DNA from: a virus
Taxonomy: Duplodnaviria > Caudoviricetes
IMG/VR virus record: IMGVR_UViG_3300028591_000104
Span: 86,487 to 150,486 of that record
Direction: 5' to 3' (one strand)
Length of the DNA stretch: 64,000 nt
Made by a program: the position numbers and the translations under genes. This document shows, piece after piece, positions 478 to 60,615 of this stretch. The number at the start of each line of letters is the position of its first letter. Position 1 is the stretch's first letter. Under the pieces are notes generated by a model that saw nothing but the letters and a program-made list of their open reading frames with translations, was not told where the DNA came from and ran no database searches.

Positions 478-1610
478 TGGGATATGATAAAAAGGTAGTT
501 AAAGATTTAATAAGCACCGATCAAATATTCGAACTATTGGAAGAATATGGCGGTGAACCTGAATATGCTTTTGAGGGTAATATTATATCTCGTACCATTT
601 GTCATAACCACCCCAATGATGATGCTTCGCGTAAGTTGTATTATTATACAAATAGCAGATTATTTCATTGTTATACTGGTTGCGCCGAGCCTTCATTTGA
701 TGTTTTTCAGTTAATCATAAAAATAGCAGATATACAATTTCATCAAGAGTGGGATTTAGACCAAGCTGTAAGATTTTTGGTTTATAGACTTGGCATCGAT
801 GTTCCAAGAGAAGAAAATGAAGAAGATCCAGTTCTACTAAAGCAAGATTTTGATTACTTTGATAAAATTAATAGAGTAAAAGAATTGGATATAAAAAATT
901 ATACAACTTTACTTAATCCTTATGATGAAAAAATATTAAATAGATTTAACTATAATGTAAAAATAACCCCGTGGATTAATGAAGGTATGAACCAAGAGAC
1001 ATTAGATAAATATAAGATAGGTTTTTATCCAGGCACTGATGTAATCACTATACCACATTATGATATTAATAATAATTTTGTAGGATTGCGCGGGCGCGCT
1101 TTGGTGCGCGAAGATGCGGAGAAGTATGGTAAGTACAGACCCGTTCGCATTGGAAAAACTTTATATAACCATCCTCTTGGATTTAATCTATACGGACTTG
1201 AAAAAAATAAAGAAAGAATAAAACTTATGCAAAAGGCCGTGGTCTTTGAGGGGGAAAAGAGCGTCTTGTTATTTGACTCTTATTTTGGTTCAGAAAATAA
1301 TATCTCGGTGGCATGTTGCGGAAGTAGCTTTACAATTTATCAGTTTTATCTATTAAAAAATCTTGGAGTTAAAGAGATAATTATTGCATTTGATAAACAG
1401 TATCAACAATTCGGAGATGCTGAACATTTGCATTTAGTAAAAAATTTTTATAAAATATTAAATAGACACATAAATGATGTAATGGTGAGCTTTATATTTG
1501 ATGGTGAACAAAACCTAGGATACAAGGATTCTCCAATTGACAGAGGAGCAGATACATTTATGAAATTATTTCAGGAAAGAAGAGTGTTTGAAGGAGGAGT
1601 GTTTAAATGA
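477..1610 (+). CDS. DNA primase (DnaG-like)
   Basis: N-terminal Zn-binding CHN...HCYTGC, GLRGR, TOPRIM motifs VFEGEKS and IAFD. Located next to the helicase. No in-frame TAG. Confidence 0.85.
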   Translation: MGYDKKVVKDLISTDQIFELLEEYGGEPEYAFEGNIISRTICHNHPNDDASRKLYYYTNSRLFHCYTGCAEPSFDVFQLIIKIADIQFHQEWDLDQAVRFLVYRLGIDVPREENEEDPVLLKQDFDYFDKINRVKELDIKNYTTLLNPYDEKILNRFNYNVKITPWINEGMNQETLDKYKIGFYPGTDVITIPHYDINNNFVGLRGRALVREDAEKYGKYRPVRIGKTLYNHPLGFNLYGLEKNKERIKLMQKAVVFEGEKSVLLFDSYFGSENNISVACCGSSFTIYQFYLLKNLGVKEIIIAFDKQYQQFGDAEHLHLVKNFYKILNRHINDVMVSFIFDGEQNLGYKDSPIDRGADTFMKLFQERRVFEGGVFK

Positions 1611-3328
1611 ATTAGGAATTGCGGCAGCCGGTTGATAGAAACCTTTCACCGCTGCAAAATATATTTAAAAATAGAGGAATGCTTTAGGGAAAAGATGATA
1701 TATTAACTTATGTTTAGCCTCCCGCTTCAGTTCAATATGATTTAACTCTCATAGAGAACTTGCGAGAGGGTGCTTCTATGTTAATGAAACATATTAAAAA
1801 TAATGATAAGGTTCTTTTGGTAGTCGATGAAGACTGTGATGGATATACTTCTTCAGCTTACTTCTTGAATTACTTTAATAAACTATTTCCAGCTTTCGTA
1901 CAAAATAACATAAAATATGTTGTTCACCCAAATAAGGCGCATGGTATACCGACTAATCTAATAACAGATGAAAAATTAATTATAGTGCCCGATGCGAGTA
2001 GTAATGAATATGATATTCATAAAGAATTAAAGGAAAAAGGAATAGATGTATTGGTCATTGACCACCACGAAGCACCAGAGTTCTCTCAGTACGCATGTGT
2101 TATTAATAATCAACTTGGTAACTACCCAAATAAGTCATTATCTGGTGTGGGAATGGTATATAAGTTCTGTAGTTTCTTTGATAAGCTAATGAACACTAAT
2201 TATGCTAACACAATGTTAGATATTGTTGCTCTTGGACTTGTTGGAGATATGATGGACTTACGAAATCTTGAAACAAGGTATCTCGTAAGAGAAGGTTTTA
2301 CCACTATTACTAACCCTTTTCTTAAGGCTATGGTAATAAAACAGGAGTATTCTGTTAAAGGTCATTTAAATCCCCATAAAGCAGCATTTTATATAGTTCC
2401 TGGTATTAACTCCGTTACGAGAATAGGAACGGTAGAAGAAAAATTAGTTTTATTTGAGTCAATGGTAGAATATAAAGCCTTTGAAATGATACCTTCAAAT
2501 GGTAGAGGTAAAAAGGGAACTTTAGAGCCGAGAGTTGAACAGGCTGTCCGCAACTGTGTAAATATTCGCAATAGGCAAAACCGCATTAAAGACGATTTGG
2601 TAGAGAGTATAGACGAATTAATTAACAGAAAGAATTTGCTAGAACACAAACTTCTTGTTATTAAAGTTGAAAATCCTATAAATACAGGTATTACTGGTCT
2701 TGTAGCTAACCAGATAGCTAATAAGTATCAACGTCCAACTTTAATATTAAACTGGCGCAAAGAGCAACGCACCTGGGAAGGGTCCGGCCGCAACTACTCA
2801 AACTCCCCGCTTAAAGACTTTAGAAGTTTCCTTGAATCTACTGGACTTATTTTGTATGCACAAGGACATGCCTCAGCTTTTGGTTTTGGTATAAGCGATG
2901 AAAATTTTGAAACTTTTATCGGAAAAACCGATAAAAGTTTATCAGATGTAGAGTTTAACTATAAATATGATATAGACCTTGAATATGAAAATAATGATCT
3001 ACTTAATGGAGATATTATAGATATAGCTGAATGCGAAGACCTGTGGGGACAAAATATTGAAGAGCCACTTATCTTAATTAAAAATGTTACTGTTAATAAA
3101 GATAATATCTTTTTATACAAGGAAAAAGTATTAAAGATAGAGAATCAAAACGGTATTAGTTTTGTGAATTTATCTTCTAACCAAGAAGAGTTTGATGCCC
3201 TTTATCCTAATGATGGATATGTAAATTTAAATATAATAGGCACTTGTTCTATTAATGATTTTAATCAAATGGGGCAAATAAAAATTAAAGATTATGAAGT
3301 AGTTAGAAAGGGGGAATATTAGTTTTGA
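1607..3328 (+). CDS. recJ: RecJ-like DHH ssDNA exonuclease (4 in-frame TAG read through)
   Basis: DEDCDG, IDHH, GSGR and GHASAFG motifs. ATG at 1607 with GGAGG RBS overlaps the primase stop. TAG at 1613, 1685, 1715 and 3320. Read-through gives MN*ELR...FKNRG at the N-terminus and ...GEY*F-TGA at the C-terminus. Confidence 0.85.
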
Positions 3329-4086
3329 AAAAGTTTACTTTATTAATTTGTCAAGGAATAGTATTGTTATTTTCTCTTGTAGTTGGCTGTAATATTAAGG
3401 AAGAAGAAATAATAGAAACTGTTCCTACTACTACTGCTACAGAACAAAGTATTCCACCCCCTCCTATAACCCCTAAACCTTTACCAACCCCCGAGTAGAG
3501 AAGACCTTATGAATATGATGCCTCTTTATCATTAAAAGAAAAAGAAAAGATGGTAGAAGAGTGTAATTCTTATGTCAGTTATTTAAATTATTTTATTTGG
3601 GACGTAGATAAAGATGATGTAATTTTAGACACTGAAGAAGTAATAGAATTGTATCTTGAGGATATAGGAATTTGGAAAGAAAAAGTAAAAGAATATCCAG
3701 TAGCAGCTACAGTATGGCGCTGGGCAATCGAAGAAAAAGGATACTCAGAATATGTAGCTGCTGGGATTATAGGTAATATGATGGTTGAAGTGGGTGGTCA
3801 TACAATGGTTTTAAAACATATGACAAGAGTAGAAAAATATTTTGGATTATGTATGTGGTATTTACCCTATAGCCCAGAAGTTGATGGAAAAAGTCTAAGA
3901 GACCAACTTAATTTTTTAGGAAAAACTATGGAAAAAAATATGGGTTCTGCTCATTATAAAGAACTTTTAAATAGTAAAAATGAAAAAGAAGCATCTATTA
4001 TTTTTGCGATGTATTATGAAAGATGTATAAGGCCGTATGGAAGACAATCTGAAGCGTCTCGTGCATACAGATATTTTACCAGTTGA
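3325..4086 (+). CDS. Putative lipoprotein with phage-tail-lysozyme-like (Phage_lysozyme2) domain (1 TAG)
   Basis: TTG start overlaps the RecJ TGA. MKKFTLL...VVGC signal/lipobox, Pro/Thr-rich linker, TAG at 3496, then AAGIIGNMMVE...FGLCMW...QLNFL...YYER. Confidence 0.6.
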
Positions 4087-4162
4087 GCCGAGCGCAAACA
4101 CACAGGTTAACCGCCTTCCAAATAAAAATGGCCCTGGGAATTTTTTAAGATGGAGTTAAAGA

Positions 4163-11039: not shown

Positions 11040-13295
11040 ATGGTAGTAATGATTCAAAAGAGAGATGGGAGAACAGTTCCCTTTAGTCGTGAAAAGATTG
11101 AGTCTGCTGTATTAAAAGCTTTTAAAGCAGTTGACTTTGAAATTAGCGACTATGCTTTAACAAAAGCAAGTAGTATAGCAGATTAGATAGAAAAGGTTGC
11201 TTATACTAAAACTTTAACGGTCGAAGAAATCCAGGACATGGTGCAAGCCGGTCTTATGAAAACTCGTAGACCAGATGTGGCGCAAGAATTTGTAACTTAT
11301 CGTTATGAAAGACAGAAGGCTAGAGAGCAGCGTTCAACTCTTATGAAGAAGATTGGTGAAAAGCTTACTGCATCAGCAGTGGCTAACCAAAATGCTAATG
11401 TAGATGAACGAAGCTTTGGTGGCAGAAAAGGCGAAGCAGATAGTGTGCTTATGAAGAAATATGCTTTAGATAATATAATTTCTCCTAAAGCTAGATTCCT
11501 TCACGAAAATAATGAAGTGTATATTCACGACCTTGATGCTTAGGCTGTTGGCATGCACAATTGTCTGTCGGTACCTTTCGACGATTTACTTGCAAAAGGT
11601 TTTAACACAAGACAAACAGATGTTCGTCCTGCAAATTCTATAAATACAGCTTTTCAATTAGTAGCAGTTTTATTCCAGCTTCAGAGTCTACAACAGTTTG
11701 GCGGAGTGGCGGCTACTCATCTTGATTGGACAATGGTTCCTTATGTGAGAAAGAGCTTTGCAAAGCACTATAAAGATGGTTGGACTTATATAGAGAATAA
11801 ACCAATAGAAGAAATAGATTATGAAATAGAAAATATGCTTACTAATTGCACCGATTATTCTATTGATGACCCAGAATATAAAGCATATAATGAAAAAATT
11901 TATAATTATGCAATACAGATGACTACACGGGAACTTAACCAGGCGGTCGAAGGTATGTATCACAATCTAAATACATTACAATCACGTAGCGGGAATCAAT
12001 TACCCTTCACCTCTGTGAATTACGGCACCTGCACTTCTATGGAAGGACGTATGGTGATAAAAGCATTGCTTGAAGGTAGTTTAAAAGGTGTAGGTAAGTT
12101 CCACAAAACACCGATATTCCCCTGTGGTATATTTCAATTGGGTAAGGGGATAAATAGAGAACCAGGAGATCCTAATTATGATTTATATCAATTAGCTATA
12201 AAGTCAACAGCTCAAAGACTTTATCCTAATTATGCTAATATAGATTGGTCAGGCAACGCGGGTTAGGATAAGAATGATCCCCGGACATAGTTCAGTACGA
12301 TGGGGTGCAGGACAGCGAACGGTTGGGATGTGAACGGATTTGGGCAACTTAAAGATGGTCGTGGAAATATATGTCCTGTCACAATTATAATGCCTACACT
12401 TGCTATGGAAGCTATTACACAAGAGGATGAAGATCCTGTTGAATATTTTATGAAACTATTAGATACTCGTATCCATGATGCAAAGGATATGCTTATTGAA
12501 CGTTTTGAATATATTTGTTCTCAAAGTCCAGAAAGTGCTAAATTTATGTATGAAAATGGTACTATGGCTGGATATATTCCTGAGGAGGGGATTAGATCAG
12601 CACTTAAGCATGGGACTTTAGCTTTGGGCCAATTAGGTCTTGCTGAGACTTTACAAATATTAATTGGTAAAGACCATACAACAGATAGCGGTATGGAACT
12701 AGCCAAGAGAATAGAACAATTATTTAAAGATAGATGTGCAGAATTTAAAAAGAAATATAGTTTAAATTTTGGTGTGTATATGACCCCGGCGGAGAACCTT
12801 TGCTATACGGCTATGCAGAAGTTCAAAGACAAGTGGGGAGAATTAGAAAACATATCAGATAAAGATTACTTTACTAATTCAATTCATGTTCCTGTTTGGA
12901 AGGAAATCAATCCTTTTGAAAAAATTGATATTGAAAGTCAATTAACAGGTTATAGTTCTGCTGGATGTATCACCTATGTAGAACTTGATGCAGGAGTTAA
13001 AAATAATCTTGAAGCCGTTGAACAGATTATAAACTATGCTATGGATAAAGATATACCTTATTTTGCTATTAATGTTCCTAATGATTTATGTTTAGGATGT
13101 GGATATACCGATGAAATTGGAGAAAAATGTCCACAGTGCGGTTGTACCAATATTCAGAGATTACGTCGTGTGACTGGATATTTGACCGGCGATTATAAAA
13201 CCGCATTTAATCTTGGTAAACAACAAGAAGTTGAAATGCGTTATAAGCATAGTAAAAAGTTAAGAGGTTGGTGCAATGAGAATAGCAAGGATTGA
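11040..13295 (+). CDS. nrdD: Class III anaerobic ribonucleoside-triphosphate reductase with N-terminal ATP cone (4 TAG read through)
   Basis: ATP cone IQKRDGR..PF, IHDLD, thiyl motif TMGCR, TPAENLC, Zn CxxC..CxxC, glycyl-radical loop RRVTGYL. All fragments are in one frame, joined by TAG at 11184, 11541, 12264 and 12288 (751 aa). Confidence 0.95.
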
Positions 13296-14102: not shown

Positions 14103-14614
14103 TTACAGTAGATAGTTTATCAATTTTAAACAGTCTTAAAATTAAAGAGATTGGTGACACAGCTTATGTTAATAAAGAGCAGAAGGTGTATGAATATACA
14201 GAGGGCGGCTGGGCGCCTAAAGCACTGCCAGAGGGCAAGATTAATTTATCTGTTTATGATATGAATAAGCAGATTGTATCACAACTTGGAGTAGCAGATG
14301 ACATCTCTCTCCTAACCCCCGTCCGCAAATTTAAAAATAAGGGTGGAAAGTATTTCATGCTCATATGTCGTGATATTAACTACTATACTCTTTTCGCTAC
14401 TATTGGAGATGATAAGATCCCCCTTGAACCGCCAGAAAGGATTGAAAAAGAAGTGCTGGCTTGTGTAAAGGATATCGGAGAGCTCCGTTCAGCAGAGGAA
14501 ATTGAAGGTACAGAAGCTGTAGAAATTTGGGTGCAGCCTAAAGAAGAATATGGACCTGACCCATTAGTTATGTATTTCTTTAATTATGATAAGGGGGTAA
14601 TCAGATGTCGGTAA
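14099..14614 (+). CDS. Hypothetical protein
   Basis: 171-aa ORF translationally coupled to the previous gene. Confidence 0.7.
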   Translation: MITVDSLSILNSLKIKEIGDTAYVNKEQKVYEYTEGGWAPKALPEGKINLSVYDMNKQIVSQLGVADDISLLTPVRKFKNKGGKYFMLICRDINYYTLFATIGDDKIPLEPPERIEKEVLACVKDIGELRSAEEIEGTEAVEIWVQPKEEYGPDPLVMYFFNYDKGVIRCR

Positions 14615-14877
14615 AACATACTTAGGTAGTTAATTTTACTAACTTTACCTTATAGGCAAGTATTTTTAATTATGTAGAAGGAAATGATGTTGTTATAGAG
14701 CATGTTCCTCACAATCAAACAGTAGATTTTTTAAAAGAAAAAATCGCGACTAAAGATGTAGAGCAGATAAAATTAGTAGGGCCGAAATCTTACACGGAAA
14801 ATATAAAAAATCAACTATACAGTTCACTAGAGTTCAGTGAAAACCCAATAAAAATAGAGTTAACGGAGGAATTTTAA
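14605..14877 (+). CDS. Hypothetical protein missing from the ORF track (2 TAG)
   Basis: ATG 14605 after AAGGGGG, TAG at 14623 and 14653, TAA at 14875. Fills the gap exactly. Confidence 0.65.
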
Positions 14878-15126: not shown

Positions 15127-15824
15127 TGGACGAAGAAAATAAGGTTACAAATCCAGAAGAGCCTGATGTATGGGGTGGTGTTCCAGTAGAAGAAAGAATG
15201 AATTATATTGACCCCATTACCTATGGCAAAATTGAAAGTAATGAATATGGTTTAAATTTCAGAGTATGGGATAACAACAAGAAGGCTCATACTTATTTTG
15301 AAAAAGTAAGTAGATTTGCGGATACAGATTTAATTACACCTATGCGAAAAACTCTTTTCTCTGCTGGATATGATATGGCGGCCGCGGAGGATATTGTGAT
15401 TCCATCATACCAGAAGCTAATGAATAAGTTCCAGGCTGATGAACCGGGAGCAGTATATAGCTTAAATGAAATGAGCTCTATAACTAAAGCCTATAAGATT
15501 AAACCCACTCTTATTTCTACTGGTTACAAGTGTCGTATAAATGGAGACCAATTTATTCAACTTTCTATTCGTTCAAGTTCCCCTCTTAAATATTGGCTTG
15601 TGTTGGCTAATGGCGTGGGTATAATCGACGCAGATTATTATAACAACCCCGATAATGAAGGTGAGATTTTCTTCCAGGTTATTAATCTTTCACCTTTTAA
15701 TATTCAAATTAAAAAGGGTGACATTATTGGTCAAGCTATTGTTATGAATTATAATACTTTAGATATTGATATATCAGGAGGACTGCGCAATGGGGGCTTT
15801 GGCAGTACAACTACTCAGTCTTGA
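15126..15824 (+). CDS. dut: Trimeric dUTPase with N-terminal extension and internal insertion
   Basis: SAGYD, RSS, GIIDADYY, GDIIGQ and RNGGFGST motifs. Confidence 0.9.
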   Translation: MDEENKVTNPEEPDVWGGVPVEERMNYIDPITYGKIESNEYGLNFRVWDNNKKAHTYFEKVSRFADTDLITPMRKTLFSAGYDMAAAEDIVIPSYQKLMNKFQADEPGAVYSLNEMSSITKAYKIKPTLISTGYKCRINGDQFIQLSIRSSSPLKYWLVLANGVGIIDADYYNNPDNEGEIFFQVINLSPFNIQIKKGDIIGQAIVMNYNTLDIDISGGLRNGGFGSTTTQS

Positions 15825-16284
15825 CCAAAGCACACGCGTTTCCGGCTGGGCAGTGTTCGGACAAGAGGGGCTCGAAGATTGCGGAAAGTTCGAAGCCTCC
15901 GGAGAAATTGGAGAGCGATTAGTATATATTAAAGAAGAAATTATTTCTCTTATAGAAAAATAGAACATAACTAAAGTAGCATTTGAAGATATTCAGTTGC
16001 AGAATAATGTAGTTAATAACGTAGTAACTTATAAAAATTTGGCTATGGTTTTTGGAGTTATTTTAGAATATCTCGAAGAAGAAAATATTCCTTATGAAAT
16101 AGTTCCTTCATCAACCTGGAAAAGTAAATTAGGAATAAAAGGAAGAACAAGACCTGAACAGAAAAAGGCAGCTCAACAATAGGTATTAGATACTTATAAA
16201 GTTAAAGCTTCTCAAGATACTTGTGATGCAATTTGTATCGGAGCTTCAACTTTAATAGTTGAAGGACATGATTGGTCAACTTAA
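15790..16284 (+). CDS. RuvC-like Holliday junction resolvase (2 TAG)
   Basis: LSLDQST..SGWAVF, FEDIQLQ, WKSKLGI and QDTCDAICIG motifs, joined by TAG at 15961 and 16180. AGGAGG before ATG 15790. Confidence 0.85.
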
Positions 16285-18855: not shown

Positions 18856-21537
18856 TTAACTCAATGTGTGTGTATGTCCATTATCTGTAACAGTGTGTGT
18901 TTTACCTGTCACTACAGTCGTAGCAGAATCATTCTTAATAGGTACAGTTACATTTGCAACCGAAGTAACATTTGGAATTGAAATTTCAGTGCCAAGTGTC
19001 GGTGCAATATGAGTATGTGTATCTGGATCGTGCGTTGCCGCAACATGTGTATGACTAAAAGATAAAACTCCATTAGTTACAGTAGCTGTAAATGAACCAC
19101 TACCTCCAAAAAATGCGCCTGAAGTAAAATCACCACTACCTGCTGAAGTCACGTTTGGTACACTAATTGCTGTTCCTAATGTAACTTTAGAAGCGGTTGT
19201 TGTAGTAGATTTTACTCCATAAATTGAACCAGTGCTATGGTCTGATATACTTATACCTGTCGTACTAGTAGCGGCAGACGTGCCATGGGGATTGCCTGTT
19301 ACCTGTGAATGGTCATACGCAATCTTTCCCCTGTCGCCTCTATACGCCGTTGAGCTTGTTTCACCTAATGCAAGTGAAGGACTTATTTCAACATAATTAG
19401 AGCCACCCCATCTATAAGTAAGATTGGTATCAAGTGCAACATATATTTTTCCAGTTTCACCAGTAGTAGGAAAACTAGACTTATTAGCATATTCTAACAC
19501 ATCATCTACATATGAAGGAAGCTGCGATGCTGGGACTAATCCATTTGCATCTAATTCAGCTACGCCATTTGCCGCGCCTTTAGCACTAGTTGCTATTGCA
19601 TTAACATCAGCTGCAGTTGTAGGCACTGTAATATTTGCAGTTACATCAGATGAAGCATTTGCTGTAAAAGTTTTTACTGTAGTACCATTCTTTTGAATAG
19701 TAAGTGTGGCATTATTTACAGTTGGATAACTAGGAACTTGCCAAGTACCATCATTCCTCAAGAACTTTGTTGTATCTGAACCTAAAGCTGGTCCATTAGT
19801 AACTGTATTTGCACCATTAAACTTTGCCAAATATCCACTTGTACCTGAACCTGTTATATTATTTGCGATACTTGGAGTGACCGTGACAGTTTGAACAGTA
19901 CCTCCTGAAGGGGTTACTGTAAATCCATTAGTTCCATTAGCAAAAGTATATGTTGTATTATTATCAGGAATAGTTACTGTTTGAGCTGTACCACTTGAAG
20001 GAGTAAGTGTAATTTTATGCCCGTCAGAACTATCTTGTGTAAGACTGTAAGTTGTGTTAGTATCTGTTGTTGCTATTGTAATTTTATCATTAGTAGCATC
20101 AGGAGTTAATGTAACATTACTGCCTGCAACTAATTCTAAAGTGTCTGTTTTACTATCTGCAGCTATTGTAGTTGAGCCAACCTTAACATTACTAAAAGCA
20201 TTTTGATTAGCTTCAGCTGTTGTGCTAATAACATGAGTAGAAGAATTAACAGAGATTGCTCCAGTTCCTGTGTAAGTAGTATCAGTAAATACAGCATCGC
20301 TAGGTACATCTTTGTCTACAGTATGACTATTAACTGTTCTTGCGTCATCAACAATTTCAATCAGATTTGTACCATTATAACGATACCATTTATTTTGTTC
20401 ATACAGAGTGATACGACAATACGATGTTGTACTGTCAAAACAAGACCCTACAAGTACATATACTTTATTTGGATCATTTGGTGTTTGTGTCCACCAAACA
20501 TCATCTAAATAATATAAATTATCTTCTGGATTGATTGTACCAACAAGATATAATAGACTCTAGGGAGTTAAAGAGTTTGCTACAAGTGAAGTATTAAATG
20601 AGTACCTTGAATCAAATATTGAAATAGAACTATATACAACAGATGCTCCTGAAATATTAGTATTAGCTGCGTAAGTGGTATTAGTATACCATATTGAGCT
20701 ACCAACTTTAAATCCATTTGAATTTGGAAGTTTAGTAGCAGCAACAGTACGACTACCTAATGAAGTTTCAGTAGCATCAGACCCCATACATATATTCTGA
20801 AATCTGCCCGTTTCATCTTCCATAAATAATGATGTTGCCCAGACACCCCTAGTACCTGTTTTACCTGCAAAATATCCAATTCTATTTTCAGTAGTAGTAT
20901 TACTATCACTAGTTTCCTGTAAACCACGAGTAACAGCATCAGGGCCTGACAAATTATTATAATTAGTAGTGCCTGAACCAGTCCAATCAGCCCATTTTAC
21001 TGGAGTATCAAGAATTGTAACAGTACAGTTTTCACATTCATAATAATCAATTTCAAATGTCCTATAATAAGTAGGATTTGTATAACCGCCTCCATAAAGA
21101 ATGCTAATACCTATTGCATGTCCATACCCAGCATCATAACCTGCTTTCTTCAAGGTGTAAATAGGCATGTAATAATGAGCTGCATCTTGTCTCTCGTTCC
21201 AGTTAGATACAATATATCCATCAGACCTACCACAAAAAGTAGACCAAGTATAAGACTGATAACTTGCATGATTAGAACAATAGGTATGAACTTTGAATTT
21301 TACCCTCCAAGGTTTATACCAATCATCAGGCCTAATTGACATAAAATACCAAGAGGATGTTTCCCATGAACCCGCTGAAGTCGCATAGTAATTTGTACTT
21401 TCATAGGTTTTATGAACTATAGGCACTATGTCTTTTTCATAGTGCCTATGATCACTTTTACTTTGTGAATTATCTTTAAAATGATAGGTATTTGTATCAT
21501 TGGGAAGTTTTATTTTACTTACATCTATATCTGCCAT
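18856..21537 (-). CDS. Tail fibre protein, 893 aa (1 TAG)
   Basis: ORFs 20560-21537 and 18856-19830 are in frame with only the TAG at 20560-20562 between them. Fibre motifs FLRNDGTW and GLVPASQLPSYVDDVLEY. Confidence 0.8.
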
Positions 21538-43300: not shown

Positions 43301-43646
43301 TGCTCTTCGTTAATTGCATAAAAGCCTGTTGTCCTTCAGGACCCAACTGGTTTAATGTCATTGCATAATCTTTTAAAGTAGTGCCAGACATTTTTATTTG
43401 CTGATTAAATTTAGTAAAATCTAACTTACCAGTATCCATATTGGTAGCAGACTTTAAAGCTACTTGTAATTCAGCAATTTGTGCTTTAGCTTTTTGCATA
43501 TCTTTAGTAAAGCCGGTGCCAAAGCCTTTACCAAAATCTAATCCTGTATTAAGTTTATTTAATGACTGTAATAAAGAATTCATTTCTCGCTTGGCTTGAG
43601 AAGCATCAGCTGTTACAGTTAATTGCATGTTCAAATTTTTTGCCAT
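34383..43646 (-). CDS. Tail tape measure protein, about 3087 aa (6 TAG)
   Basis: TMP core (IRIVTG...YADKITALGA..SSDEIA), long helical/coiled-coil regions and C-terminal FDTGGYTG..LHQKELVLN. In-frame TAG at 41547, 41226, 39489, 39318, 38748 and 34956. Confidence 0.9.
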
Positions 43647-44365: not shown

Positions 44366-46069
44366 TTAATGCTGATGGCGACCTAATTCAGTAATTTGCT
44401 TAATAGCTAAACTAACATGAGTAGACACACTAAATAAAGATAACATTAAATTTCTCATACGTCTAAAAGCCATAGCATAATCATTATAACCACCTGTCTT
44501 TTTTTCACTCTTTTCCCAACTATTTTTTAAATCAAGAGCAGGTTTACCATTATATTTAATATCTATCCCACCAGTATTTTTTTCTTTAAATAAAGTTGGG
44601 AAAGCACTAATAGGAATAACAACAAAATGTCCTACAGTACTATCGTTAAATACAAAATAGTTAGCTTCTAAAGTATATTGATCAAGAGCAGTTGTTCTAA
44701 CCCCTCCTGCTAAAGCCTTATAAAAAGTATATTCTTTCATTATATCCTTAGCTTTTGTGACTAAATCTGAACCACCCGTTCTATTCCATTCTCTCTTTTT
44801 TTCATTGTGGCGAGAATCTCCAGAAGCAGTTCTGGTAGTAGCGATATTTAAATAATGATTAATAAATTCATCTCTACCCTGAATTAAACGTATAAGACTG
44901 CCGCTATGTAGAGAAACTTTATCAAATTTCGCAGACTGATAATTTTTAATTGAAAGATTTAAATCTTCCTCTCCATCCATAGTAATAACGGCATCAACTT
45001 TATCTTGTGTGGCTTTAACAGATATTAATCCAGCATCACCATTAGCTTGATATTCTAAATAATTATTTCTACTATTTAAATCCCCTGCAAAAGTATGACC
45101 CTCATAATTTTCACCTGATAAATTTAAGTTTATAGCATAATTAGCTTGAAATAAACCTTTATGACTTGTATCCTTACCAGTAATACTATATCCATTATTA
45201 CTTTTTCCCTTCTTCATGCTTTCAGTAAAATTTTTCATCATATCATCAGTTATTTCTTTAGTTACTTTATTACCTTTTTGCTGTAACATAAATAATATTC
45301 CCATAGTCATAAATTCACCTAAATGTCCATTAGCCATAGCCTGATGAAAAATATAATCTCGCATTAAACTATTATATTTTTCTACGAAAGATAATGCATT
45401 CTCATTAGCCGTATGAGTAGTTACTCCATTTTTATTTACTACATCTTGTAAATAATATACTTTTTCACCTGTTTGTTTTAAATCTTTAGTTAATTGTTTA
45501 TCTAATTGTATTAATTCTTTTACTCTAGCCTCTATATCAGAACCTTTAGTAAATTTAGAATTATTATATGCTCTGTTTAATGCCATTATTCTTTGCTTAA
45601 TTGTTGAAGCTCTTACACTTTTAGCTTCACCAGTTTTATTAATATAATCTCCTTTAAGTCCCACTAATTCTCTAGGGTCTTTTCCTTCAGCGTAATCAAA
45701 ACGCAAATGTTCAAAATTTCCTTTTAAAACATCTGTTCTATTAAGTTGACTTTCTACCTATTCTAAAGCATATTTTTCCAAAAGTTTATATTCTTCTTCT
45801 GTAAGCTGAGCCCCTGTTAGAGGTGTCTTACCACGACTATTATAATAAAAATTCAATTTTTTAGCTAAATCATTAGCTTTTGTCCAATTTCCTAAACCTT
45901 TCTAATAATTAACAATATTATTATGTGCATCTTCTAATACTTTTTCAGGTCCTCCTGATGTTTTTTCCCAAGTTCCCGAATCAAACCTGCGGCCTGCCTT
46001 AGATTGCAAACCAAAAGCTAAATAATAATCTCTATTATAGTGAATATAATTATCAATAATACTGCTCAT
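44366..46069 (-). CDS. Hypothetical protein, 567 aa (2 TAG); possible PD-(D/E)XK-like motif
   Basis: ATG 46069 with AAGGAG RBS. TAG at 45902 and 45758. KVDAVI...LSIKNY motif. Confidence 0.65.
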
Positions 46070-47462: not shown

Positions 47463-48203
47463 TTAATGTAAAGGTTTCATCCAGTTCTCAGGCTGATCAT
47501 TTGGAGTACCTCCAGCTAATCTTACACGAAGATCAATATCATTCTGAGTCCATAGACTAAACCTTTCAAATAAATCTGTGATTTGAAAAACTGTTAAATT
47601 ATTCAAATCTTCTATTGACATATGTAAACCAATAGCCAAAATAGAAATAAATCTAGACTACATAGAATCATCAGGATTCGCTTCAGCTTTTCTTTTAGCT
47701 AATTCAGCTCGTCCTTTATAAATCTTTTCTGCTATGCGTCTAGCTTTTTCATTTGCGGGATTGTAGACTTCGTGGATCTCGCCATCTTGATCCCTCTGTT
47801 TATCTAAACCACAAATCTTTTTAGCAATCTTTTGAAAATTATCAAAATTGCCTTCATCTATTATGAGATTTTCTTCATCTTTTTTACATAAGATTGACCT
47901 AGGAGTAATCATTATTTGCTATTGCGGCAGGAGCATTGATAACAGTGTCTTGACCGTTACCTTTTTATCTCTTGCCTCATCTTGTTGCAAAATAAACATT
48001 AGCAAATTAAAGTTCGACTCTATATTTATATCTTGGTCTTTAAAATCTTCTTTCGTAACGCACAATAATTGCGCTCCAACTAAAAAATCTCTTTCACCCA
48101 TTTTTGAAATTTCTTTAATAGTAGGCTGTTTAACTGTTAATTGACACTCGGGGATTGGAATATCAACCCCAGTCATCAATGCCAACCTATAATCAAATTC
48201 CAT
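47463..48203 (-). CDS. Hypothetical tail-region protein, 246 aa (2 TAG)
   Basis: Fragments joined by TAG at 47919 and 47658. Ends ...NWMKPLH, TAA. Confidence 0.7.
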
Positions 48204-48805
48204 TAATCCCCTCTAAATTCTTCAGGATTAAACAACTGATTAAATTCATCAATATATGCTTGCTCGTCAGCTGGATTGGGCATACCATAATTATCCTCGC
48301 CACCATGAACAGCCGCATACATTAAAGTTACTCCAGCAAATTCATCATTTAAAATAATTTGATTCATCCCCATAAACTGAAGTTTTCCAATACCGGTTAA
48401 ATGCCTATTATTAAAACAGGTGTCTATCTCCGCGGCAATACGCTACGGCCGCAACTGATTATCTTTGAGTTCCCACTGGTCAAAATGACAAATAATATCA
48501 AATGTAATTACATTGTCACGAAATTCTGGATTGTTCAAATTAAGGGTAAAGTTATCAAAACTTATTATTATCTAGTTCAATACAGACCCGTCTACATATA
48601 ATTTTGGTACACGCTTAATATTTTTTCCCATTAATTCCACGGTTTGCTCTTCAGTTAAATTAGGTTGATCTAAGGCTGTTTTTTCTGTATAATACAAAAG
48701 CTTTTTAAATCTTTCGTCTTTTAACAGCCAGCCTATAATAATGTCCATGTCCTTATCTACTGATAAAAAACTGGATTCAGGCTATCTATATCTATTAACT
48801 TTCAT
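48203..48805 (-). CDS. Putative tail completion/neck protein missing from the ORF track, 200 aa (3 TAG)
   Basis: AAAGGAG RBS. MKVNRYR*PESSFLS...SVLN*IIISFDNF...QLRP*RIAAEID. TAG at 48782, 48572 and 48443. Confidence 0.75.
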
Positions 48806-48826: not shown

Positions 48827-49795
48827 TTAAAGGGAATCTACCACGATAACCCTTTCAGCAGAGCCATACTTAAGAGTAAACTGGCCACTGTAACTCTGTT
48901 GCCATTTAACCTTAATAGTTTTACCATCTATAGCCTTTTGAATAGTTTTATTATCGCTAATAAGTTCCCATTGACCCTCTTCACTACCTTCATAAGTATA
49001 AACATAAGTTAATTTAGGCTTAATAAAATTTTCACCAACTATTAAATCCGAAGCAGGCTCAGGAGGGATAGGATCCACAATCAATCCACCAGCTATACCA
49101 TTTTCTAAATCATCTTCCATTTCATTTGAATAATATTCAACTGCTGTAAGTTCAATGATACCAGGAGTACTAATAGTATCGAATCCTTCAACTCGCCAAC
49201 AAATATCAGCTTCATTATCTTCTAAGGTTCTTAAATAAAATTTATTATATCTCTTAAAATATCTTAATGTTTCTGGGTTTTTAGGTAGTATTATATTTAA
49301 AGAGTGATTAGGTTCATCAACACTAATTCCACTCTTTTGGATGAAATTAATCTTGGTTTCTACTGGGCCACGAACCGCTGCCTAAGTAGTAACCACTTCA
49401 CCATTTTCACTCTTCCAACTTATAGTATAACGACATTTTCTTATGTCCCCACGGAAATAAGCTAATTCAGTTAAATCTTGTAAATAAACTATCCAATAGG
49501 TATCAGTATTTAACCATTTAAAAATATCACCCGGTTTATAATCATACTCATATCCTACGGATAAAATTTTATTGTCATAATCCATTGTAAGCTTGTTTGG
49601 GTTTACCAAAGCTCTAGCTACAACATCACTATCTAATTTTTGCACTTTAGCACCTTGCTATGAGTACAATACTGCTTTATCCAAAGAACGCCTTTTATCT
49701 TTAATCATTCTATCTTGCTGCGGGAACCCGCCATGTTGCTTCAAGCGAGCGGCCATGCCGCCCAAAGCACTGGGATAAGGTACATTAATTTTCAT
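48827..49795 (-). CDS. Putative head closure / head-tail protein, about 322 aa (2 TAG)
   Basis: AVLYS*QGA and VVTT*AAVRGPVETKI. TAG at 49658 and 49382. The start could instead be the ATG at 49756. Confidence 0.7.
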
Positions 49796-50078
49796 CTTGA
49801 AGCCCTCTTACCAAACTGATACATTCAAACACAGTCTTTCGATAAAAATCAAAAGCTGACTCACTATGAAGCAAACCTTCAAGTTTAGCCAATAAAATAA
49901 GATAGTCGTTTTGCGAGACATAAATCTCATTTAAACCAACTATCTCATTTATAACTGTTTCTAATTGTAAAATGTAATTTTCTTCGTTCTCTCTCATTGG
50001 GATAAGCTTATAAAGATGATTAATTAATCGGCCACTTTCCTGACGTACAGGAATATCAAAACCGTATTTAGTCATCAA
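49785..50078 (-). CDS. Hypothetical protein
   Basis: 97-aa ORF (LYKLIPMRE...RKTVFECI) with GGGAGG RBS. Confidence 0.7.
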   Translation of the reverse strand: MMTKYGFDIPVRQESGRLINHLYKLIPMRENEENYILQLETVINEIVGLNEIYVSQNDYLILLAKLEGLLHSESAFDFYRKTVFECISLVRGLQDEN

Positions 50079-50658
50079 TCGCTGATACCTCCCTTAGAAC
50101 ACCCCAGTTAGAACTAATAGAACCATCTTCTGCTACCTTACGGCGCTTATATAGACGTTGATAATGAAAGTCCTGTCTCTGACACTCAGTTAACAAGGCT
50201 AGTAACTTTGATAAATGATTTGCCTGAGAAGTAAATTTAAAATCACTTCCACTCTATTTCATTCTGGTATTCTCAATAGAAGTAACTTGGCGCTGAAGCC
50301 AGCCGCATTTCATGATTAAAGCTAAAATAAAAATTTCTTCTGAAGTAAGGTCAGCCGCGAAAGTGCTACGCTCAACAATAACTTTTGCTACTGTTGGGTC
50401 ACCTTCTTGCCCCGGCTCTAACTCATTCCATATAATACCAATTACAAAATCATTTTCAGTTAAATCTTTTTCATCAATAACTTCTGTTTCAATGGTATAA
50501 TCAGTAAGATTTTTTCTTGGAAATTCAAATCTCGGTATACCATTAAGTAATAAATTCTGTAAATCTTTTAAAGTATCCTCTGGTGTAAGCTCGACCTACA
50601 TATCATCAGTAATCTGGTCTAGGAAAGCATTATATACTTTAGTAAAACTTGTTGCCAT
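50068..50658 (-). CDS. Putative head-tail adaptor missing from the ORF track, 196 aa (1 TAG)
   Basis: AAAGGAG RBS. MATSFTKVYNAFLDQITDDM*VELT...FEFPR...DFKFTSQANHLSKL. TAG at 50596. Confidence 0.75.
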
Positions 50659-54421: not shown

Positions 54422-56035
54422 TTATCCCATACTCTCTCTATTGGCAATTGTTTTATCGCTCTTTTCACTGTCTTCCTTTTCAGGACGTCCAGCTTGACCA
54501 TTAGATTCATCCATCAACTTAGTGCCTTTACTTCCAACCTCTTTAATAGTTTCAATATTCATTGTACTACTCATAAGAGGAGGTATCATAATAGCTGGCA
54601 AGTTCAAAATGTCATTCTCAAATACGACTGTATTCATAATCATAGATTGTGAATGTCCAAGAGCAATTTGAGGTAAACACTTCGAGAAACCAAGTTGAGT
54701 CTGTTCTTTATACATTTTAGCTAATTCTTTATAGTTATACTGAGTTGTTTCTAGCATGAAAAATCTGAAACCATATTTCTTATTATTCATACCTTTCTTC
54801 GTTTTCTGTCTAACTAATCTATCAAAAAAAGAACTAAATTGTAATACCATGGTTTTAACCTATGCTTCATCGTTTAAAATTGAGTTAGCTAAAGCAACAT
54901 TACCAGTAGAATTAAAAATGCTTTGAGGAGTACCAAAAGCATTATAAACAGTTCTTTCAACTCTTGCCAAATCATCATTAGAACTTGTAGTATTATCATC
55001 AGAAACATCAATCGAATCAACATCTGTAGGAGTAGTTAACACATCAACTCCAATAGCATTAGCTAGCATTTGAACTGCATTATTATGCAAATCTCTAGCT
55101 TCATCTACATCAAATATTAAATCACCATTTTTATCTCTTGGAAGTTTCTGAACAAAAACTTTTAAAAGTTTTTGTAACTGCTTGCGGCGGTCTAGGTCTT
55201 GTGCCGCGTCTAAATCGATGAGTTCGGGAATCGCAGAAGCGAACAGCGGCAAATCTCCTGAGCCAAGGCCAAAATCAAATTTAACTGTTGCTCCTTGGTC
55301 AAGTAACTACCAAGCTCCCAAACGACATCCATCACCATCGTGTTCAACTGGTATTTTACCTTCTTTGTAAAGTTGATAACCCTTTTTAAACTCTTTAGGG
55401 AACATATTTAAAACTTTTAAACGATAGATAGGATCGGAAAACGCTATATCAAACCATCTCATATCAAATTCAATAGCAGGTAACGGTCCTCTATTATATC
55501 TTGTACGGCAATATTTTCTAGGTAACTCTTGGAGCACAAACCCTTCAGAACCCTCAACAACATAGCCGTAATAACAACCATACTTTATAACATTTAAAGC
55601 TATAACAGCACAAGTTTTTTTAATATAACTATCATCTAAATATCTAAGTAATTCTCTGAAATCTTTCTTTACTTTATCTTCTTTTATCTTATCAGAGTCT
55701 GTGTATAACTCTGCACTAATATACCAGTCATATCTATACATTGTAGCAAAATAGCAACACACTCTTTGATAAATACCATTGGTAATAAAGAAGTAATCTG
55801 AAATTTCTCTTAAAGCTTCTGCATTTTTTTGTTGTAATGCTTGTAATACATAAGCCTTATTACCCAACATATTTCTTGTTTCTGGTTTATTATACTTCCC
55901 TAAATTTATAGTAGCATCATCAAGTTTTTTAACATCGACTTTGATAGAGCCAAAATCAACGTTGGGATTAGAAGTGTCGTTTGATCGATATAAATTAAAT
56001 CCTTTTTCATGGATTTCTTGCTGTCTATCTTCCAA
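54422..56035 (-). CDS. Portal protein, 537 aa (2 TAG)
   Basis: Three in-frame fragments joined by TAG at 55307 and 54860. C-terminal PPLMSST and GRP motifs. Positioned between terminase and protease. Confidence 0.75.
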
Positions 56036-56049
56036 AGTGTCACCTCCTT

Positions 56050-56489: not shown

Positions 56490-58229
56490 TTAGTTCATAA
56501 AACAAAAATCTGAAGCTTTAAATCTCTTTCTCTTTTTCTTACCTTCTGTTTCTCTAATATACCATAATCCATATTCAAAAGCTGAAAATTTATCTTTTTG
56601 GATGTTTTTATTAGCTTGTTTTAACAAAATATTCATACCTTGATTTTCTTCTCTTAAATTTAACATTTCATACTTTAGAATTGTTGTAAGTTCATAAGGC
56701 ATTAAATAAATCTTTCTCTGCTCAGGAGTCATATTTTTACCCATCATAGTACCTAATAATTTCTGTTTAGCAGTTCTTTCATCAATTAAGAATTTTACTT
56801 TGCCCGCGCTCATCTGCGTTACAACATTTGAATGACACTCTGTATTAATTTCCGCATTAGCTTTCATAATATACATTGCATCATCTTCTGTACGAGGAGT
56901 TCTATACTTTTTATATTCTCCGTCTTTATCATTCTGAACACCAAAGTCTGGATAATTCTCACCAGTTTCTGGGTCATCCTGACTTTTAACCATCGCGTCT
57001 ACAAGACCTTGACCAAGACCATTACCATCGACTAAAATTGTTCTTGCGTGATATTTATAAAATAATCTTTTAAGAACAACTGCTTGATCCAATAGGTTCT
57101 CATCATTAATAACATAAATATTTACTAAGTTGGTTATGGGCGCGCCAACCTCCTGCGGCCGCACCTTAAACACACATACTACAGTATCACATTTGATACG
57201 ACCTACGTCGCAAGCAAGAATATAATAACTTCTATCACTAGAACGTCCGCTATATTCATATTCTGGCTTTTGGAGTGTACGATTTCTTTCAAAAGCATCT
57301 CCATTAAAGAATGAACCTTCAACAACGCCCGTCCACATAGATTCATATTCTCTTTGGAAACTTGCTTCATCATAAGTAGTATCTCGTTTTAAGTCCTGAA
57401 TAAAGCTCTTATCTTGAAGCCCCATCAGAACTGGTATTCTCCAAGTACCGCCCATAATAAATGCTTTTTCTGGTTCAACTACCATCCATACAAGATACTG
57501 TATCAATTTAGTATAACTAAAAGTAGATTTATAACCTGCTGTAGTAATCCAAACTTGAGATTTATTTAAAGGTTCTTTATCGTATTTTTGTCCATTCATC
57601 GCCTGTCGAGATACGTTCATCATAGGAATAATTACCTGGGATAGAATAGTACCATCAACACCAACGCATTCCTCGACTACACCCCCGTGTCTTCTTTTAC
57701 CTCTTGACTTTTCACTAGCAGGGACATTATCAAACTATGAACCATTTTTAAATCTATAAATTACATAGTCTTTACCAATACGAGTCTTACCAGGTCTCCA
57801 GTCAATCTCACGTGCCAGATTAGGTACCATTGAGCAAAGCTCATCTACCTTCTCTTTAACAATGCCCGCAGACTGTTCCTTACCTCCAGAAGTAACGAAT
57901 AACTTGGCACCTGGATATAAAATACATTTAATTATTAAACTTAAAACAGTTAAGAAAGATTTAGAATAAGCTCTAGGAAAAACAAAATAAGTCTAACGAT
58001 ATCTTAAACATACTCTTAAAAAAACTCTTTGATAAAAGAAAAACTTTAATCCATCTTTAGGTACTTCTCCATTTTCTCCCTTTTGGAGGAAATCTATAAA
58101 TAAATCTGGATAAGCCTTCCAAAAACTAATGTATTGAGCAAGACGAGGCCGAATTGCTTCGAACCTCTCTTCACTCATACCTATTTTTTTATTCATAGAG
58201 GAAGTATTAAGTAAGTCTTGTAATCCCAT
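56490..58229 (-). CDS. Terminase large subunit, 579 aa (2 TAG)
   Basis: FPRAYSKSF (Walker A-like), RGKRRHGGVVEE (Walker B), ITTAG, FQREYES, CDVGR, VDGNGLG and KDKFSA motifs. TAG at 57993 and 57735. Confidence 0.9.
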
Positions 58230-59492
58230 TTAATCTTCCCCCTTCTTTTTCTTTTTAATGTTTACAACTGATGGTTTCTTTTTCTTCTCATTAGCTTTGA
58301 TTTCTTTCTTTATTTCTTGTTTTTTCTCTTGTAAACTTAGATTATCTGATTTTTCTAGCTCTTCTTCAAATTCCCTAAACTTCACTATATCTTCGTCCGT
58401 GACCGTGTCAGAGACCTCGTCCGCAAACAACTCTTGCTCGAAACCATCTTCATCAGCTTCTTTATCTTCTTCTCTTTCCCTATCTTCTTCAATATCTTTA
58501 AGTGCTTTATCAAGTAAGTCAGCCAAATTCATTTCTTCTGTAACAAGTTTCTTAACATAATTTTGATTATCTTTAATTACCCAATCTACTTTATCTTCTG
58601 GCTGTTCTGTGTAATAAACTGGAATAAATTCATGCTTTTCACACATCATAGCTATTTCACCAATAGAATCAACAAATTCACCAGATTCAGCCTTATTTTG
58701 CGCGGCAGTGAACTTACCAGATTTCATTAATGTATCATAAGCACGAGTCATTTTTAAAGCACCATCTACATCACCTATATCCAACAGCTGATTAGCTTTT
58801 AAGCTGGTCTTACATATCATTTTTAAAGTATCTATGTGACCTGCGGTCTGAATATCGTAAGAAGCCATCATATCATTATAAAGTTGTTCAAGTTGAACAT
58901 ATTCAAAGGGACGGTAATTACGTCCCCACTTTAGTCTAAGATATGTTAAATCTTCTTGAGTTAAATCTAATTCTAGATCTGAATCATCCGTACTTATAAA
59001 ACTGGCGCTGTCGGTGGTTTTGTTCTGCCCAAAGTTCTCTGGTTTTGGCGGTGCCTCGACCTGCCCGGCCGCAATCATTTCTTGAATTTCACTTTCGGAC
59101 TATTTACCTTGTCTTTCAAGAGCTTCTCTTTTTTCTTTTTCATCAATCTTTTGAAGTGTTTCACTATCTGCGAAACGATATTTCTTAAATTGATTAAGTT
59201 TCATTTTAGCTAACTACTTACCAATAATGGTAGTAGGAGTCATTTTTTCAGGGTTTCCCGCATAATTAGCTAATAATCTATTCCATTCATTTGGAACATA
59301 AGGTACATCAACTTCTTCCAACAGAGGAACATAAGTTGCAGGGTCCCAATTATCAAGATGCGCCACAAAGCATTGTTTACATAAATCTACATGGCCATCT
59401 GGATATTTTTCTGTATTATTAGATTTATAAAAATCACTTATTTTTAATACTTTGCCGCATCTAACACAAAATTTAGTTTCTGTTTCTGCCAT
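58230..59492 (-). CDS. Zn-finger protein upstream of TerL (possible small terminase / DNA-binding), 420 aa (2 TAG)
   Basis: CVRC...CKQC at the N-terminus. TAG at 59214 and 59100. Abuts the TerL start. Confidence 0.65.
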
Positions 59493-59541
59493 TTTTATCT
59501 CTCCTTTCTTATATATTATTTTAAAAACTTAGGAGAGTTTT

Positions 59542-60615
59542 TTAGCTCTGGACCTTTTTCTTTTTACGATTTTTAGACCGACAGGTTTTGCACTGTGAAT
59601 AAAAACCATCCTTAGAAGTGGAATTGCGGTTGAAGAATCGTGGATGTGCAATGAGCACCCGGCCGCAGCAAGAACAAGTTTTATATGTTCCTTTTTCTTC
59701 ATACATCTACCAATAGTCAATGAAATTATCAGTTGCTTTTTCTGCTATTAATTCGGGGATTTTATTACAATAAATATTTGATATATATTCTGGTGTATAT
59801 TGTTTTCCAAATTCCGCATATAATTCTTGCGCTATTTCATTGTTGGACATGGAAGACCATTTATATTCGGTAATAGCTTGGTAGATAGGCTTATCTTCAA
59901 GGGCTTCAAATAAACAATTCTCAAAGTCCATAATTAAAAACCACATGTCATTGAACTTGCCCCAATTCTTTCCTTTTAGTTTGATGTAAGATTGAAGAAG
60001 TTCGCGGCAAAGAGATTTTTTCATAAGAGAAGCACCTTCGTAATGGATTGTACCGTCTGAGTCAATCCATTCTTTTACGGGATATTCTTGCGGCAAAGGT
60101 GCCTATGTGGGGGGCGATGAGCTTAGGTTAACGCCCTAGTGCATATCTCTGAGTTCATAACAAAGGGCCTTATCTTCGCGGAAGGCCTTGGCCGCAATCC
60201 ATGCGCGACGTCCGGTAGAACTTTTTTGAATTTCTTTCCAGAGTTGCGCTGCTTCAAGGCGGTCGCGCAAACCAGGAATTTCATCTAAATCTCTTTGTGT
60301 AATAGCACGTGGTTTTCTAGTAATTTTTTCATTTGTGACTGAACGAGATTGTGATAACGCTTCGATTGCATCTGCACCAGCTTCAAATTTGGCAGAAAGA
60401 GACTGATAGGAAGTTTCATGCTCTCTAATTACTTTCATACGGTTTTCAGTTGTAATTTTACGCTCACGAATTCGTTCTTGTTTATCTAAAGGGTAAACTA
60501 ACTAGTCAGCTAACCATTCTAATTCTTTTTCATTTGGATTAGGATTATCTTTTAAGTAGTTATTTACAAATTCTAATCTACCCTCTGATGTTTCTATTTT
60601 AGTATCTAAGAACAA
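59542..60615 (-). CDS. Putative transcriptional regulator (HTH-like region plus C-terminal Cys Zn-finger), 357 aa (4 TAG)
   Basis: TTG start with AAAGGAGG RBS. TAG at 60502, 60136, 60103 and 59707. MSNNEIAQEL..YISNI and CSCC...CKTC motifs. Confidence 0.6.

Follow-up and report, generated by a model that had tools for sequence, protein, structure and literature searches.

Probable reading of the amber codon as tyrosine in a clade of large gut siphophages

The 64,000-nucleotide stretch of DNA analysed here, called the window, spans positions 86,487 to 150,486 of IMG/VR record IMGVR_UViG_3300028591_000104 and forms the final 64 kb of this single 150,486-bp phage contig (35% GC; CheckV completeness 93%). 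Coordinates refer to the window unless they are called genome positions, which refer to the whole contig. A plus-strand block for replication and nucleotide metabolism encodes a DnaB-like helicase, a RecJ-like DHH exonuclease, a lysozyme, a PIF1-type helicase, Pol III alpha, NrdD/NrdG, a dUTPase and RuvC. It is accompanied by a long minus-strand virion block with tail genes, a tape-measure protein of 3087 amino acids (aa), the portal, the terminase large subunit (TerL) and a sigma-like protein. Under NCBI translation table 11 the region is fragmented, and when the amber codon TAG is read through it resolves into long genes that abut or slightly overlap. Judged from sequence comparison, TAG probably encodes tyrosine in this phage, where it is used sparingly while TAA and TGA still serve as stops; we put the probability of this reading at about 0.9.

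Between positions 1607 and 60615 there are 58 in-frame TAGs in 22 open reading frames (ORFs) of at least 100 aa, and a 90-aa gene adds two more, giving 60 TAGs in 23 genes (Table 1). All 23 genes end with TAA or TGA, and none contains a TAA or TGA break or requires a frameshift. The same pattern extends over the whole genome, in which the 91 genes of at least 150 aa hold 113 in-frame TAGs and zero in-frame TAA or TGA. TAA is the main stop codon (141 of 204 predicted genes). Coding density of the whole genome is 82% with code 11 and reaches 91.5% with TAG as a sense codon, as compared with 83.5% and 88.7% when TGA or TAA, respectively, is treated as sense. TAG is found in replication, lysis and most virion genes; the genes for Pol III alpha and the helicases and the one matching the YonB family are among several long genes without it. 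If TAG is counted as tyrosine, the Tyr codons of the genome are TAT (1565), TAC (252) and TAG (113), so that TAG makes up 5.9% of them.

Translation across TAG is also apparent from individual genes. The anaerobic ribonucleotide reductase NrdD aligns over residues 2-737 to the solved NrdD structure 8p23, across four TAGs, and TerL and portal are full length when TAG is read through. In the gene at 18856-21537, 567 open codons follow the TAG, and the first 243 of these contain no ATG, GTG or TTG. Because this segment has no possible start codon, it could be translated only by read-through. These results agree well with the initial annotation of the window, which had been made from the sequence alone. 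It had counted by hand 59 TAGs in 23 genes, of which the number of genes stands and the number of TAGs becomes 60. Its statements that TAA/TGA breaks and frameshifts are absent, that genes within the first 60.6 kb end with TAA or TGA (which holds for all 23 TAG-bearing genes) and that read-through yields full-length, tightly packed genes are borne out by the ORF table and the NrdD alignment. Pfam and PHROG matches confirmed the identities of the essential genes it had named as interrupted, i.e., the RecJ-like DHH, NrdD, tape-measure, portal and TerL genes. The motifs it quoted are present as well (IHDLDA[TAG]AVGMHNC and DPRT[TAG]FSTMGCR in NrdD; RYR[TAG]TYFVFPRA and FKNGS[TAG]FDN in TerL).

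That TAG is a sense codon in this phage is virtually certain. The TAGs could in principle be sequencing or assembly errors, pseudogenising mutations or pyrrolysine codons, the last suggested by the label 'Pyl' that ARAGORN attached to a phage tRNA with anticodon CUA, a name given to any CUA tRNA. We regard all three as hardly credible. Independent assemblies of related phages have TAG at the same positions, which argues against assembly errors. Furthermore, an independent sheep-gut sample and an RNA library yielded contigs that span several TAG sites, with no difference there among the differences listed. Errors or pseudogenes would also have to interrupt 23 genes, several of them essential, by TAG only and never by TAA or TGA. 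For pyrrolysine, a search of the genome with the PylS profile gave no match, and the alignment columns at the TAG sites hold tyrosine.

These columns were examined with the 120 closest homologues of NrdD (70-87% identity) and of TerL. Opposite the TAGs of NrdD, Tyr was present in 119 of 120 sequences at aa 168, in 119 of 120 at aa 409 and in 117 of 120 at aa 417; at aa 49 the column was mixed (Y65/F44). For TerL, Tyr occurred in 119 of 120 sequences opposite aa 79, and the column opposite aa 165 was Y109/F9. Five of the six columns are thus 91-99% Tyr, where the initial annotation had expected tyrosine from family motifs. The few glutamines in these columns come only from the nearest relatives, whose database proteins match their own DNA only 'with_TAG=Q'. 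The glutamines are therefore a code-15 rendering of TAG.

Several public proteins (P0001-P0004, P0007, P0008, P0121, P0124 and P0126-P0129) were called with TAG=Q and have Q at conserved tyrosines; in P0124, a TerL, LRQRQTQFVF takes the place of the LRYRYTYFVF of other sequences. The many unusual glutamines of P0130 led us to suspect that TAG had yet another meaning there, which was rejected: these are ordinary Gln residues, since its TerL translates by table 11.

A comparison at the codon level led to the same amino acid. TAG-bearing proteins of the window were aligned with orthologues in four related contigs, and positions with a local identity of at least 0.5 were scored. Opposite the TAGs of this phage, the relatives had a Tyr codon (TAT/TAC) 27 times, TAG 19 times and another codon three times. 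Ordinary Tyr codons of this phage were kept as Tyr in 80% of cases within these alignments, so TAG behaves as a Tyr codon. In the reverse direction, TAGs of the relatives fell on 30 of 608 aligned Tyr positions and on 3 of 466 Phe positions of this phage, and on none of the Gln (0/462), Lys (0/856), Glu (0/885), Leu (0/921) or Trp (0/131) positions. The exchange of TAG with TAT and TAC, together with its absence from Gln positions, upholds the earlier proposal of tyrosine rather than glutamine.

Outside the window, a GIY-YIG-type gene at genome 63822-64509 has a TAG at aa 30 that stands opposite TAT in three GIY-YIG paralogues of the related contig L163.

Glutamine is the meaning of TAG in NCBI table 15, with which databases translate this clade and which applies to the human-gut phage phAss-1. 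In its favour, one of two alignable TAGs in the phAss-1 TerL lies on a Q column that is invariant in 109 of 109 sequences, in agreement with the Gln assignment published for that phage (PMC10607447). The related contig L006 (ENA; 162 kb; region 1-21743; TerL 68% identical) places TAG five times on a CAG of this phage and never on its Tyr codons, and one site of this phage, aa 8 of the gene starting at 48203 (g48203), is opposite CAA in L006. Judging from these codon alignments, L006 belongs to a sister clade that is best read as translating TAG as Gln. The comparison that gives Tyr for the present phage thus gives Gln for L006 and for the phAss-1 TerL, which serves as a control. At the TAG sites of the window, L006 has TAT/TAC. 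For the phage studied here, the Tyr columns and the lack of TAG at Gln positions contradict table 15. The CUA tRNA is, moreover, of a class II Tyr type and not of a Gln type, and we consider a glutamine reading very improbable.

The gene for this 91-nt tRNA(CUA) was found by ARAGORN about 44 kb upstream of the window, at genome 42607-42697, and scores 44 bits with the Rfam tRNA model. The gene is part of a tRNA cluster at genome 34.5-48.2 kb that comprises 26 tRNA genes and a transfer-messenger RNA (tmRNA). Its predicted structure has a 3-bp D-stem, the long variable arm of class II tRNAs and discriminator A73, unlike the two Ser tRNAs of the phage, which carry G73. In a comparison with 50,697 phage records, all annotated matches were tRNA-Tyr and two further matches were unannotated. 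Among the tRNAs recovered from 151 Lachnospiraceae genomes, the best full-length match was tRNA-Tyr(GTA) with a score of 33, as compared with at most 17.5 for Leu and Ser tRNAs, and the D-arm TATGCAAGTGGnnAAAG is near-identical between the two. We used only this full-length match, since blastn against the same 151 genomes mostly gave uninformative hits, in the T-arm and acceptor, on tRNA-Pro and tRNA-Gln. The phage also encodes a tRNA-Tyr(GTA), but the suppressor is not a copy of it.

Class II tRNA(CUA) genes of the Tyr type with A73 also occur in five related contigs. Those of L163 (144.5 kb) and L165/L167 are in a syntenic position and have C-G as the 1-72 pair, as does this phage; those of L166 and L168 have G-C. 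A specific D-arm plus anticodon pattern retrieved no locus from IMG/VR and four contigs from JGI metagenomes. A looser anticodon-arm pattern was discarded because its 47 IMG/VR loci were mostly class I Gln-like suppressors unrelated to the tRNA(CUA) of this phage. The examined stretch of the 172-kb contig L164 contained no CUA tRNA and no informative TAG pairs.

Genome searches with the TyrRS/TrpRS-family profile PF00579 (tyrosyl- and tryptophanyl-tRNA synthetases) and with profiles for release factors 1 and 2 (RF1 and RF2) gave no match. Thus, of the translation components that the initial annotation had proposed to look for, the CUA tRNA with long variable arm, A73 and Tyr-like body was recovered, whereas a synthetase or release factor was not.

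Two other kinds of tRNA were noted in IMG/VR. A 435,804-bp contig carries at L131:8018-8108 a 91-nt class II tRNA(CUA) with C1-G72 and A73, which raises the possibility that TAG is read as Tyr in an unrelated huge phage too. Contigs L121, L127, L143, L152, L155, L156 and others encode Gln-like tRNA(CUA) genes of 88-91 nt with U1 and a 3' end ...CCCCA; these have an extra stretch of about 15 nt past the anticodon stem, unusual for a tRNA-Gln-type suppressor. In the tRNA cluster region of the present phage, Rfam also called a tRNA, at L004:10356-10427, which is missing from the ARAGORN output.

A precedent for such a suppressor is supF (su3) of E. coli, a tRNA-Tyr body in which the anticodon GUA has become CUA and with which the cell's TyrRS brings about insertion of Tyr at UAG. 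The phage tRNA shares with supF the tRNA-Tyr body, the class II long variable arm, A73 and the CUA anticodon. Whereas supF, of laboratory or host origin, suppresses nonsense codons that occur only occasionally, the phage-borne tRNA would serve about 113 dependent sites in long genes; it differs also in its C1-G72 pair. By analogy, the tRNA-Tyr-like class II tRNA(CUA) would be the amber suppressor that decodes TAG in this phage, and a G34-to-C34 change in a Clostridia-type tRNA-Tyr appears to have given rise to it. As the phage has no match to a synthetase profile, the host TyrRS would charge it, just as the E. coli enzyme charges supF. A G1-C72 pair is typical of bacterial tRNA-Tyr; because the relatives carry either 1-72 pair and this phage has C1-G72, we can only infer this charging step. 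Charged tRNA(CUA) would then compete with host RF1 at UAG. The TAG codons themselves may have arisen from TAT or TAC by single third-position changes, an origin that fits the TAT-rich Tyr usage.

Several observations weigh against the tyrosine reading. Direct support, in the form of TAT or TAC in at least one relative, exists for only 27 of the 58 TAG sites; the others comprise seven sites opposite TAG only, 13 without an aligned relative (tape-measure and fibre proteins) and 11 opposite other codons, mostly at a local identity below 0.4. The TAG sites of the tape-measure protein, of the 567-aa protein g44366 and half of those in the fibre protein have no reliable alignment to any relative. 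The suppressor of this phage carries C1-G72 instead of the G1-C72 typical of bacterial tRNA-Tyr, and its variable arm exceeds those of the relatives by about 5 nt. The lead to the host is binning in Lachnospiraceae/Clostridia metagenome-assembled genomes (MAGs), which is weak evidence. Finally, in some small early genes outside the window a TAG precedes the TAA or TGA by just 3-20 codons (genome 5746-6237, 17876-18304, 56364-57140 and 61908-62462).

The unusual tRNA features bear on the possibility of ambiguous or partial decoding, in which mischarging would mix Tyr with Leu, Ser or Phe, or RF1 would terminate at a substantial fraction of TAGs and give truncated products. The suppressor has C1-G72 and an unusually long variable arm, and LeuRS and SerRS, the synthetases for Leu and Ser, do not read the anticodon. 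An antagonist of RF1 was not found in the release factor profile searches, and TAG is rare among the Tyr codons. On the other hand, TAG is placed almost only at Tyr positions and at a few Phe positions, which would not be sustainable if other residues were common at the invariant tyrosines of NrdD and TerL. We therefore find ambiguous decoding improbable.

The late TAGs of the small early genes raise a different point, namely that the code could be partitioned, with TAG as Tyr in middle and late genes and as a stop in some small early genes, as in other recoded phages. Such an arrangement would be compatible with TAG as tyrosine in the genes of the window. In these small genes TAG is a candidate stop, or else the proteins may have short tails that contain Tyr. 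TAG density has its lowest values, 1.75 and 1.79 per 1000 codons, at genome 0-30 kb and 60-90 kb, respectively, in line with partitioning. However, in the RecJ-like gene a TAG stands one codon before the last residue and is opposite TAT in relatives, so a late TAG need not be a stop. A partitioned code is possible but rather doubtful.

The columns, the codons and the tRNA all support the earlier proposal that TAG alone is read as tyrosine, with TAA still a stop and NCBI table 29 inapplicable. The TerL tree was rooted on phAss-1. In it, a clade of 12 members with a support of 1.0 unites the query with the sequences that have Q at conserved tyrosines; its sister is a 109-member group that contains the L006 TerL. 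The clade also includes the TerL of the 12-kb ENA contig L169 (region 1-9999; TerL 70% identical), which has no TAG in its sigma-like, YonG-like, TerL and portal genes; at eight aligned TAG sites of this phage it has TAT six times and TTC twice, and within the clade L169 may use the standard code. None of the alignable sites has a TAG in both the Tyr-type and the Gln-type genomes. Orthologues in relatives match the Pfam families YonG, YonD, YonB, YomW, YomV and YomU, names that we take to derive from proteins of Bacillus phage SPbeta.

We consider it highly probable, at slightly lower confidence than for the phage itself, that a monophyletic clade of large siphophages from ruminant and other guts, with an SPbeta-like virion module, translates TAG and no other stop codon as tyrosine by means of a tRNA-Tyr(CUA) derived from a host. 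There is no NCBI table for this code, and as far as we found it is undescribed for any virus or cell; a sister clade uses Gln, a near relative has no TAG in the genes seen, and databases enter Q for Y. Because the sister clade reads TAG as Gln, one phage family would have taken over this stop codon on at least two occasions, each time with another meaning.

The closest comparison is with TAG-to-Gln phages of the gut (crAss-like, Lak, Garnet/Topaz and phAss-1; table 15). In these, too, TAG is a sense codon that occurs in essential virion genes, TAA and TGA are stops, and the phage encodes a tRNA(CUA) without a cognate synthetase for use in a host that presumably has the standard code. They differ from the present case in the amino acid and the tRNA, i.e., Gln with a tRNA-Gln derivative as opposed to Tyr with a class II tRNA-Tyr derivative. 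Table 29, the nuclear code of Mesodinium, has TAG = Tyr in common with this phage, but it also assigns TAA to Tyr. It does not apply here because TAA remains a stop, never found in frame in the 91 long genes, and this is a bacterial virus and not a ciliate nucleus.

Among phages with a code differing from that of their host, Borges et al. (bioRxiv 10.1101/2021.08.26.457843) report that they saw only TAG-to-Gln and TGA-to-Trp, and Gln was assumed for the phAss-1 group (Babkin et al., 2023, PMC10607447). In a set of 180 phage tRNA-Sup genes, tRNAscan-SE gave isotype 'Tyr' for 1.1%, noted as 'code 29' (Kienbeck et al., 2024, PMC10879173). These may be the same kind of tRNA; the set provides an isotype prediction alone, without codon or protein evidence, a statement of TAG-only Tyr or a lineage. 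This isotype call was the sole hint at Tyr in our full-text literature search, which returned no description of TAG-to-Tyr in a phage, as the initial annotation had suspected.

Accounts of stop-codon recoding in phages have distinguished two cases, TAG-to-Gln and TGA-to-Trp, and have explained them by glutaminyl- and tryptophanyl-tRNA synthetases (GlnRS and TrpRS) that are unusually easy to hijack. A TAG-to-Tyr lineage would mean that a third synthetase can be recruited, so that the amino acid cannot be predicted from the codon alone. There is a practical side as well: gene callers that switch to code 15 enter Gln at every TAG, so that here the deposited NrdD, TerL and portal proteins have it in place of invariant tyrosines, which affects annotation, structure prediction and phylogeny. 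Sister clades that differ in the meaning of TAG, with a relative in which no TAG is seen, offer a natural comparison for the onset and switching of a code change. A natural phage-borne family of Tyr amber suppressors for Clostridia-type hosts may also serve genetic-code work in Gram-positive anaerobes.

Table 1. Genes of the window with in-frame TAG codons (given as residue numbers, aa, or as counts).
Gene or product	Length (aa)	Position	Strand	TAG codons	Basis or remark
RecJ-like DHH exonuclease	573	1607..3328	+	aa 3, 27, 37, 572	Pfam DHH and RecJ_OB
Tail lysozyme	253	3325..4086	+	aa 58	Pfam Phage_lysozyme2; relative also has TAG there
NrdD	751	11040..13295	+	aa 49, 168, 409, 417 (11184-6, 11541-3, 12264-6, 12288-90)	Pfam NRDD 6.8e-146
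Small gene	90	14605..14877	+	2	ORF table with TAG as sense
RuvC-like Holliday junction resolvase	172	15766..16284	+	aa 66, 139	PHROG 159/827
Virion or tail-associated protein	893	18856..21537	-	aa 326	PHROG matches downstream of TAG
Tail-region gene		21554..22741	-	1	
Tail-region gene		22757..23134	-	2	Relative has TAG at aa 73
Tail-region gene		23153..24034	-	1	
Tail-region gene		24038..24661	-	3	Relative has TAT at aa 80
Tail protein	1092	24723..28001	-	3	1065-aa orthologue in L002/L008
Tail protein	531	28018..29613	-	3	540-aa orthologue in L002/L008
Tail fibre-like protein	1493	29784..34265	-	6	
Tape-measure protein	3087	34383..43646	-	6	Pfam PhageMin_Tail
g44366	567	44366..46069	-	2	Poor alignment to relatives at both sites
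Virion gene		47463..48203	-	2	PHROG virion family
Virion gene (g48203)		48203..48805	-	3	PHROG virion family
Virion gene		48827..49795	-	2	PHROG virion family
Virion gene		50068..50658	-	2	PHROG virion family
Portal	537	54422..56035	-	aa 243, 392	PHROG 2739, 7.7e-77
TerL	579	56490..58229	-	aa 79, 165	PHROG 2 and 15503
YonG-like protein	420	58230..59492	-	aa 93, 131	PHROG 3314
Sigma-like protein with C-terminal zinc-finger/HNH-like region	357	59542..60615	-	aa 38, 160, 171, 303	PHROG 5767

The codons found in relatives vary among the genes of Table 1. For the RecJ-like gene, TAT is found opposite two of the sites (aa 27 and 572) and TAG opposite aa 3; AAC/AAT stands opposite aa 37, which lies in a poorly aligned stretch. 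The RuvC-like gene is matched by TAG at aa 66 and by TAT or TAG at aa 139. In the two tail proteins between 24723 and 29613, the TAGs of this phage are opposite TAT or TAG in L002/L008, and seven TAGs specific to L002/L008 fall on TAT (six) or TTT (one) of this phage. The fibre-like protein of 1493 aa is opposite TAT at aa 171 and 1052 and opposite AAG at aa 443, where local identity is low; its other three sites are unaligned. Relatives encode the tape-measure protein as single genes of 3056 and 3004 aa, with no reliable alignment at the TAG sites themselves. At seven of the nine TAG sites in the four virion genes between 47463 and 50658, and at all four sites of the sigma-like gene, at least one relative has TAT/TAC. 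Both portal sites are TAT in L005 and L006; in L169, aa 243 is opposite TAT and aa 392 opposite TTC. The YonG-like gene has TAG, TAG and TAT in relatives at aa 93.

DNA of the phage is present in sheep-gut metagenome runs, and goat and bovine gut runs gave partial matches. The closest GenBank phage is phAss-1 (portal 35% and TerL 39% identical), a broadly related member of this phage group; large siphophages of Enterococcus and Bacillus come next. A megablast of 16.7 kb of the phage against GenBank phages returned no match, and a single-protein search of IMG/VR with TerL found no relative; the relatives were obtained from ENA and Logan assemblies. Contigs with NrdD relatives at 69-77% identity (L010-L014), one of them 165 kb long, were binned in Lachnospiraceae, Acetatifactor, Clostridium and Bacilli MAGs and are probably phage contigs swept into these bins.

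The contig start (genome 1-330) recurs at 61805-62140 of the window, with 127 identical bases followed by substitutions. A clean terminal repeat was therefore rejected, and the pair is a diverged direct repeat or a set of paralogous small genes.

Two further genes deserve mention. Upstream of NrdD, a 403-aa gene at 9596-10807 (plus strand) has an orthologue of equal length and position in L002 that matches Pfam MFS_1; going by the match of the L002 protein, the gene is a candidate for a major-facilitator transporter, which would be unusual phage cargo. Within the tRNA cluster, the phage encodes its tmRNA at genome 38982-39351, with the tag peptide ANDYALAA and an Rfam score of 131 bits.

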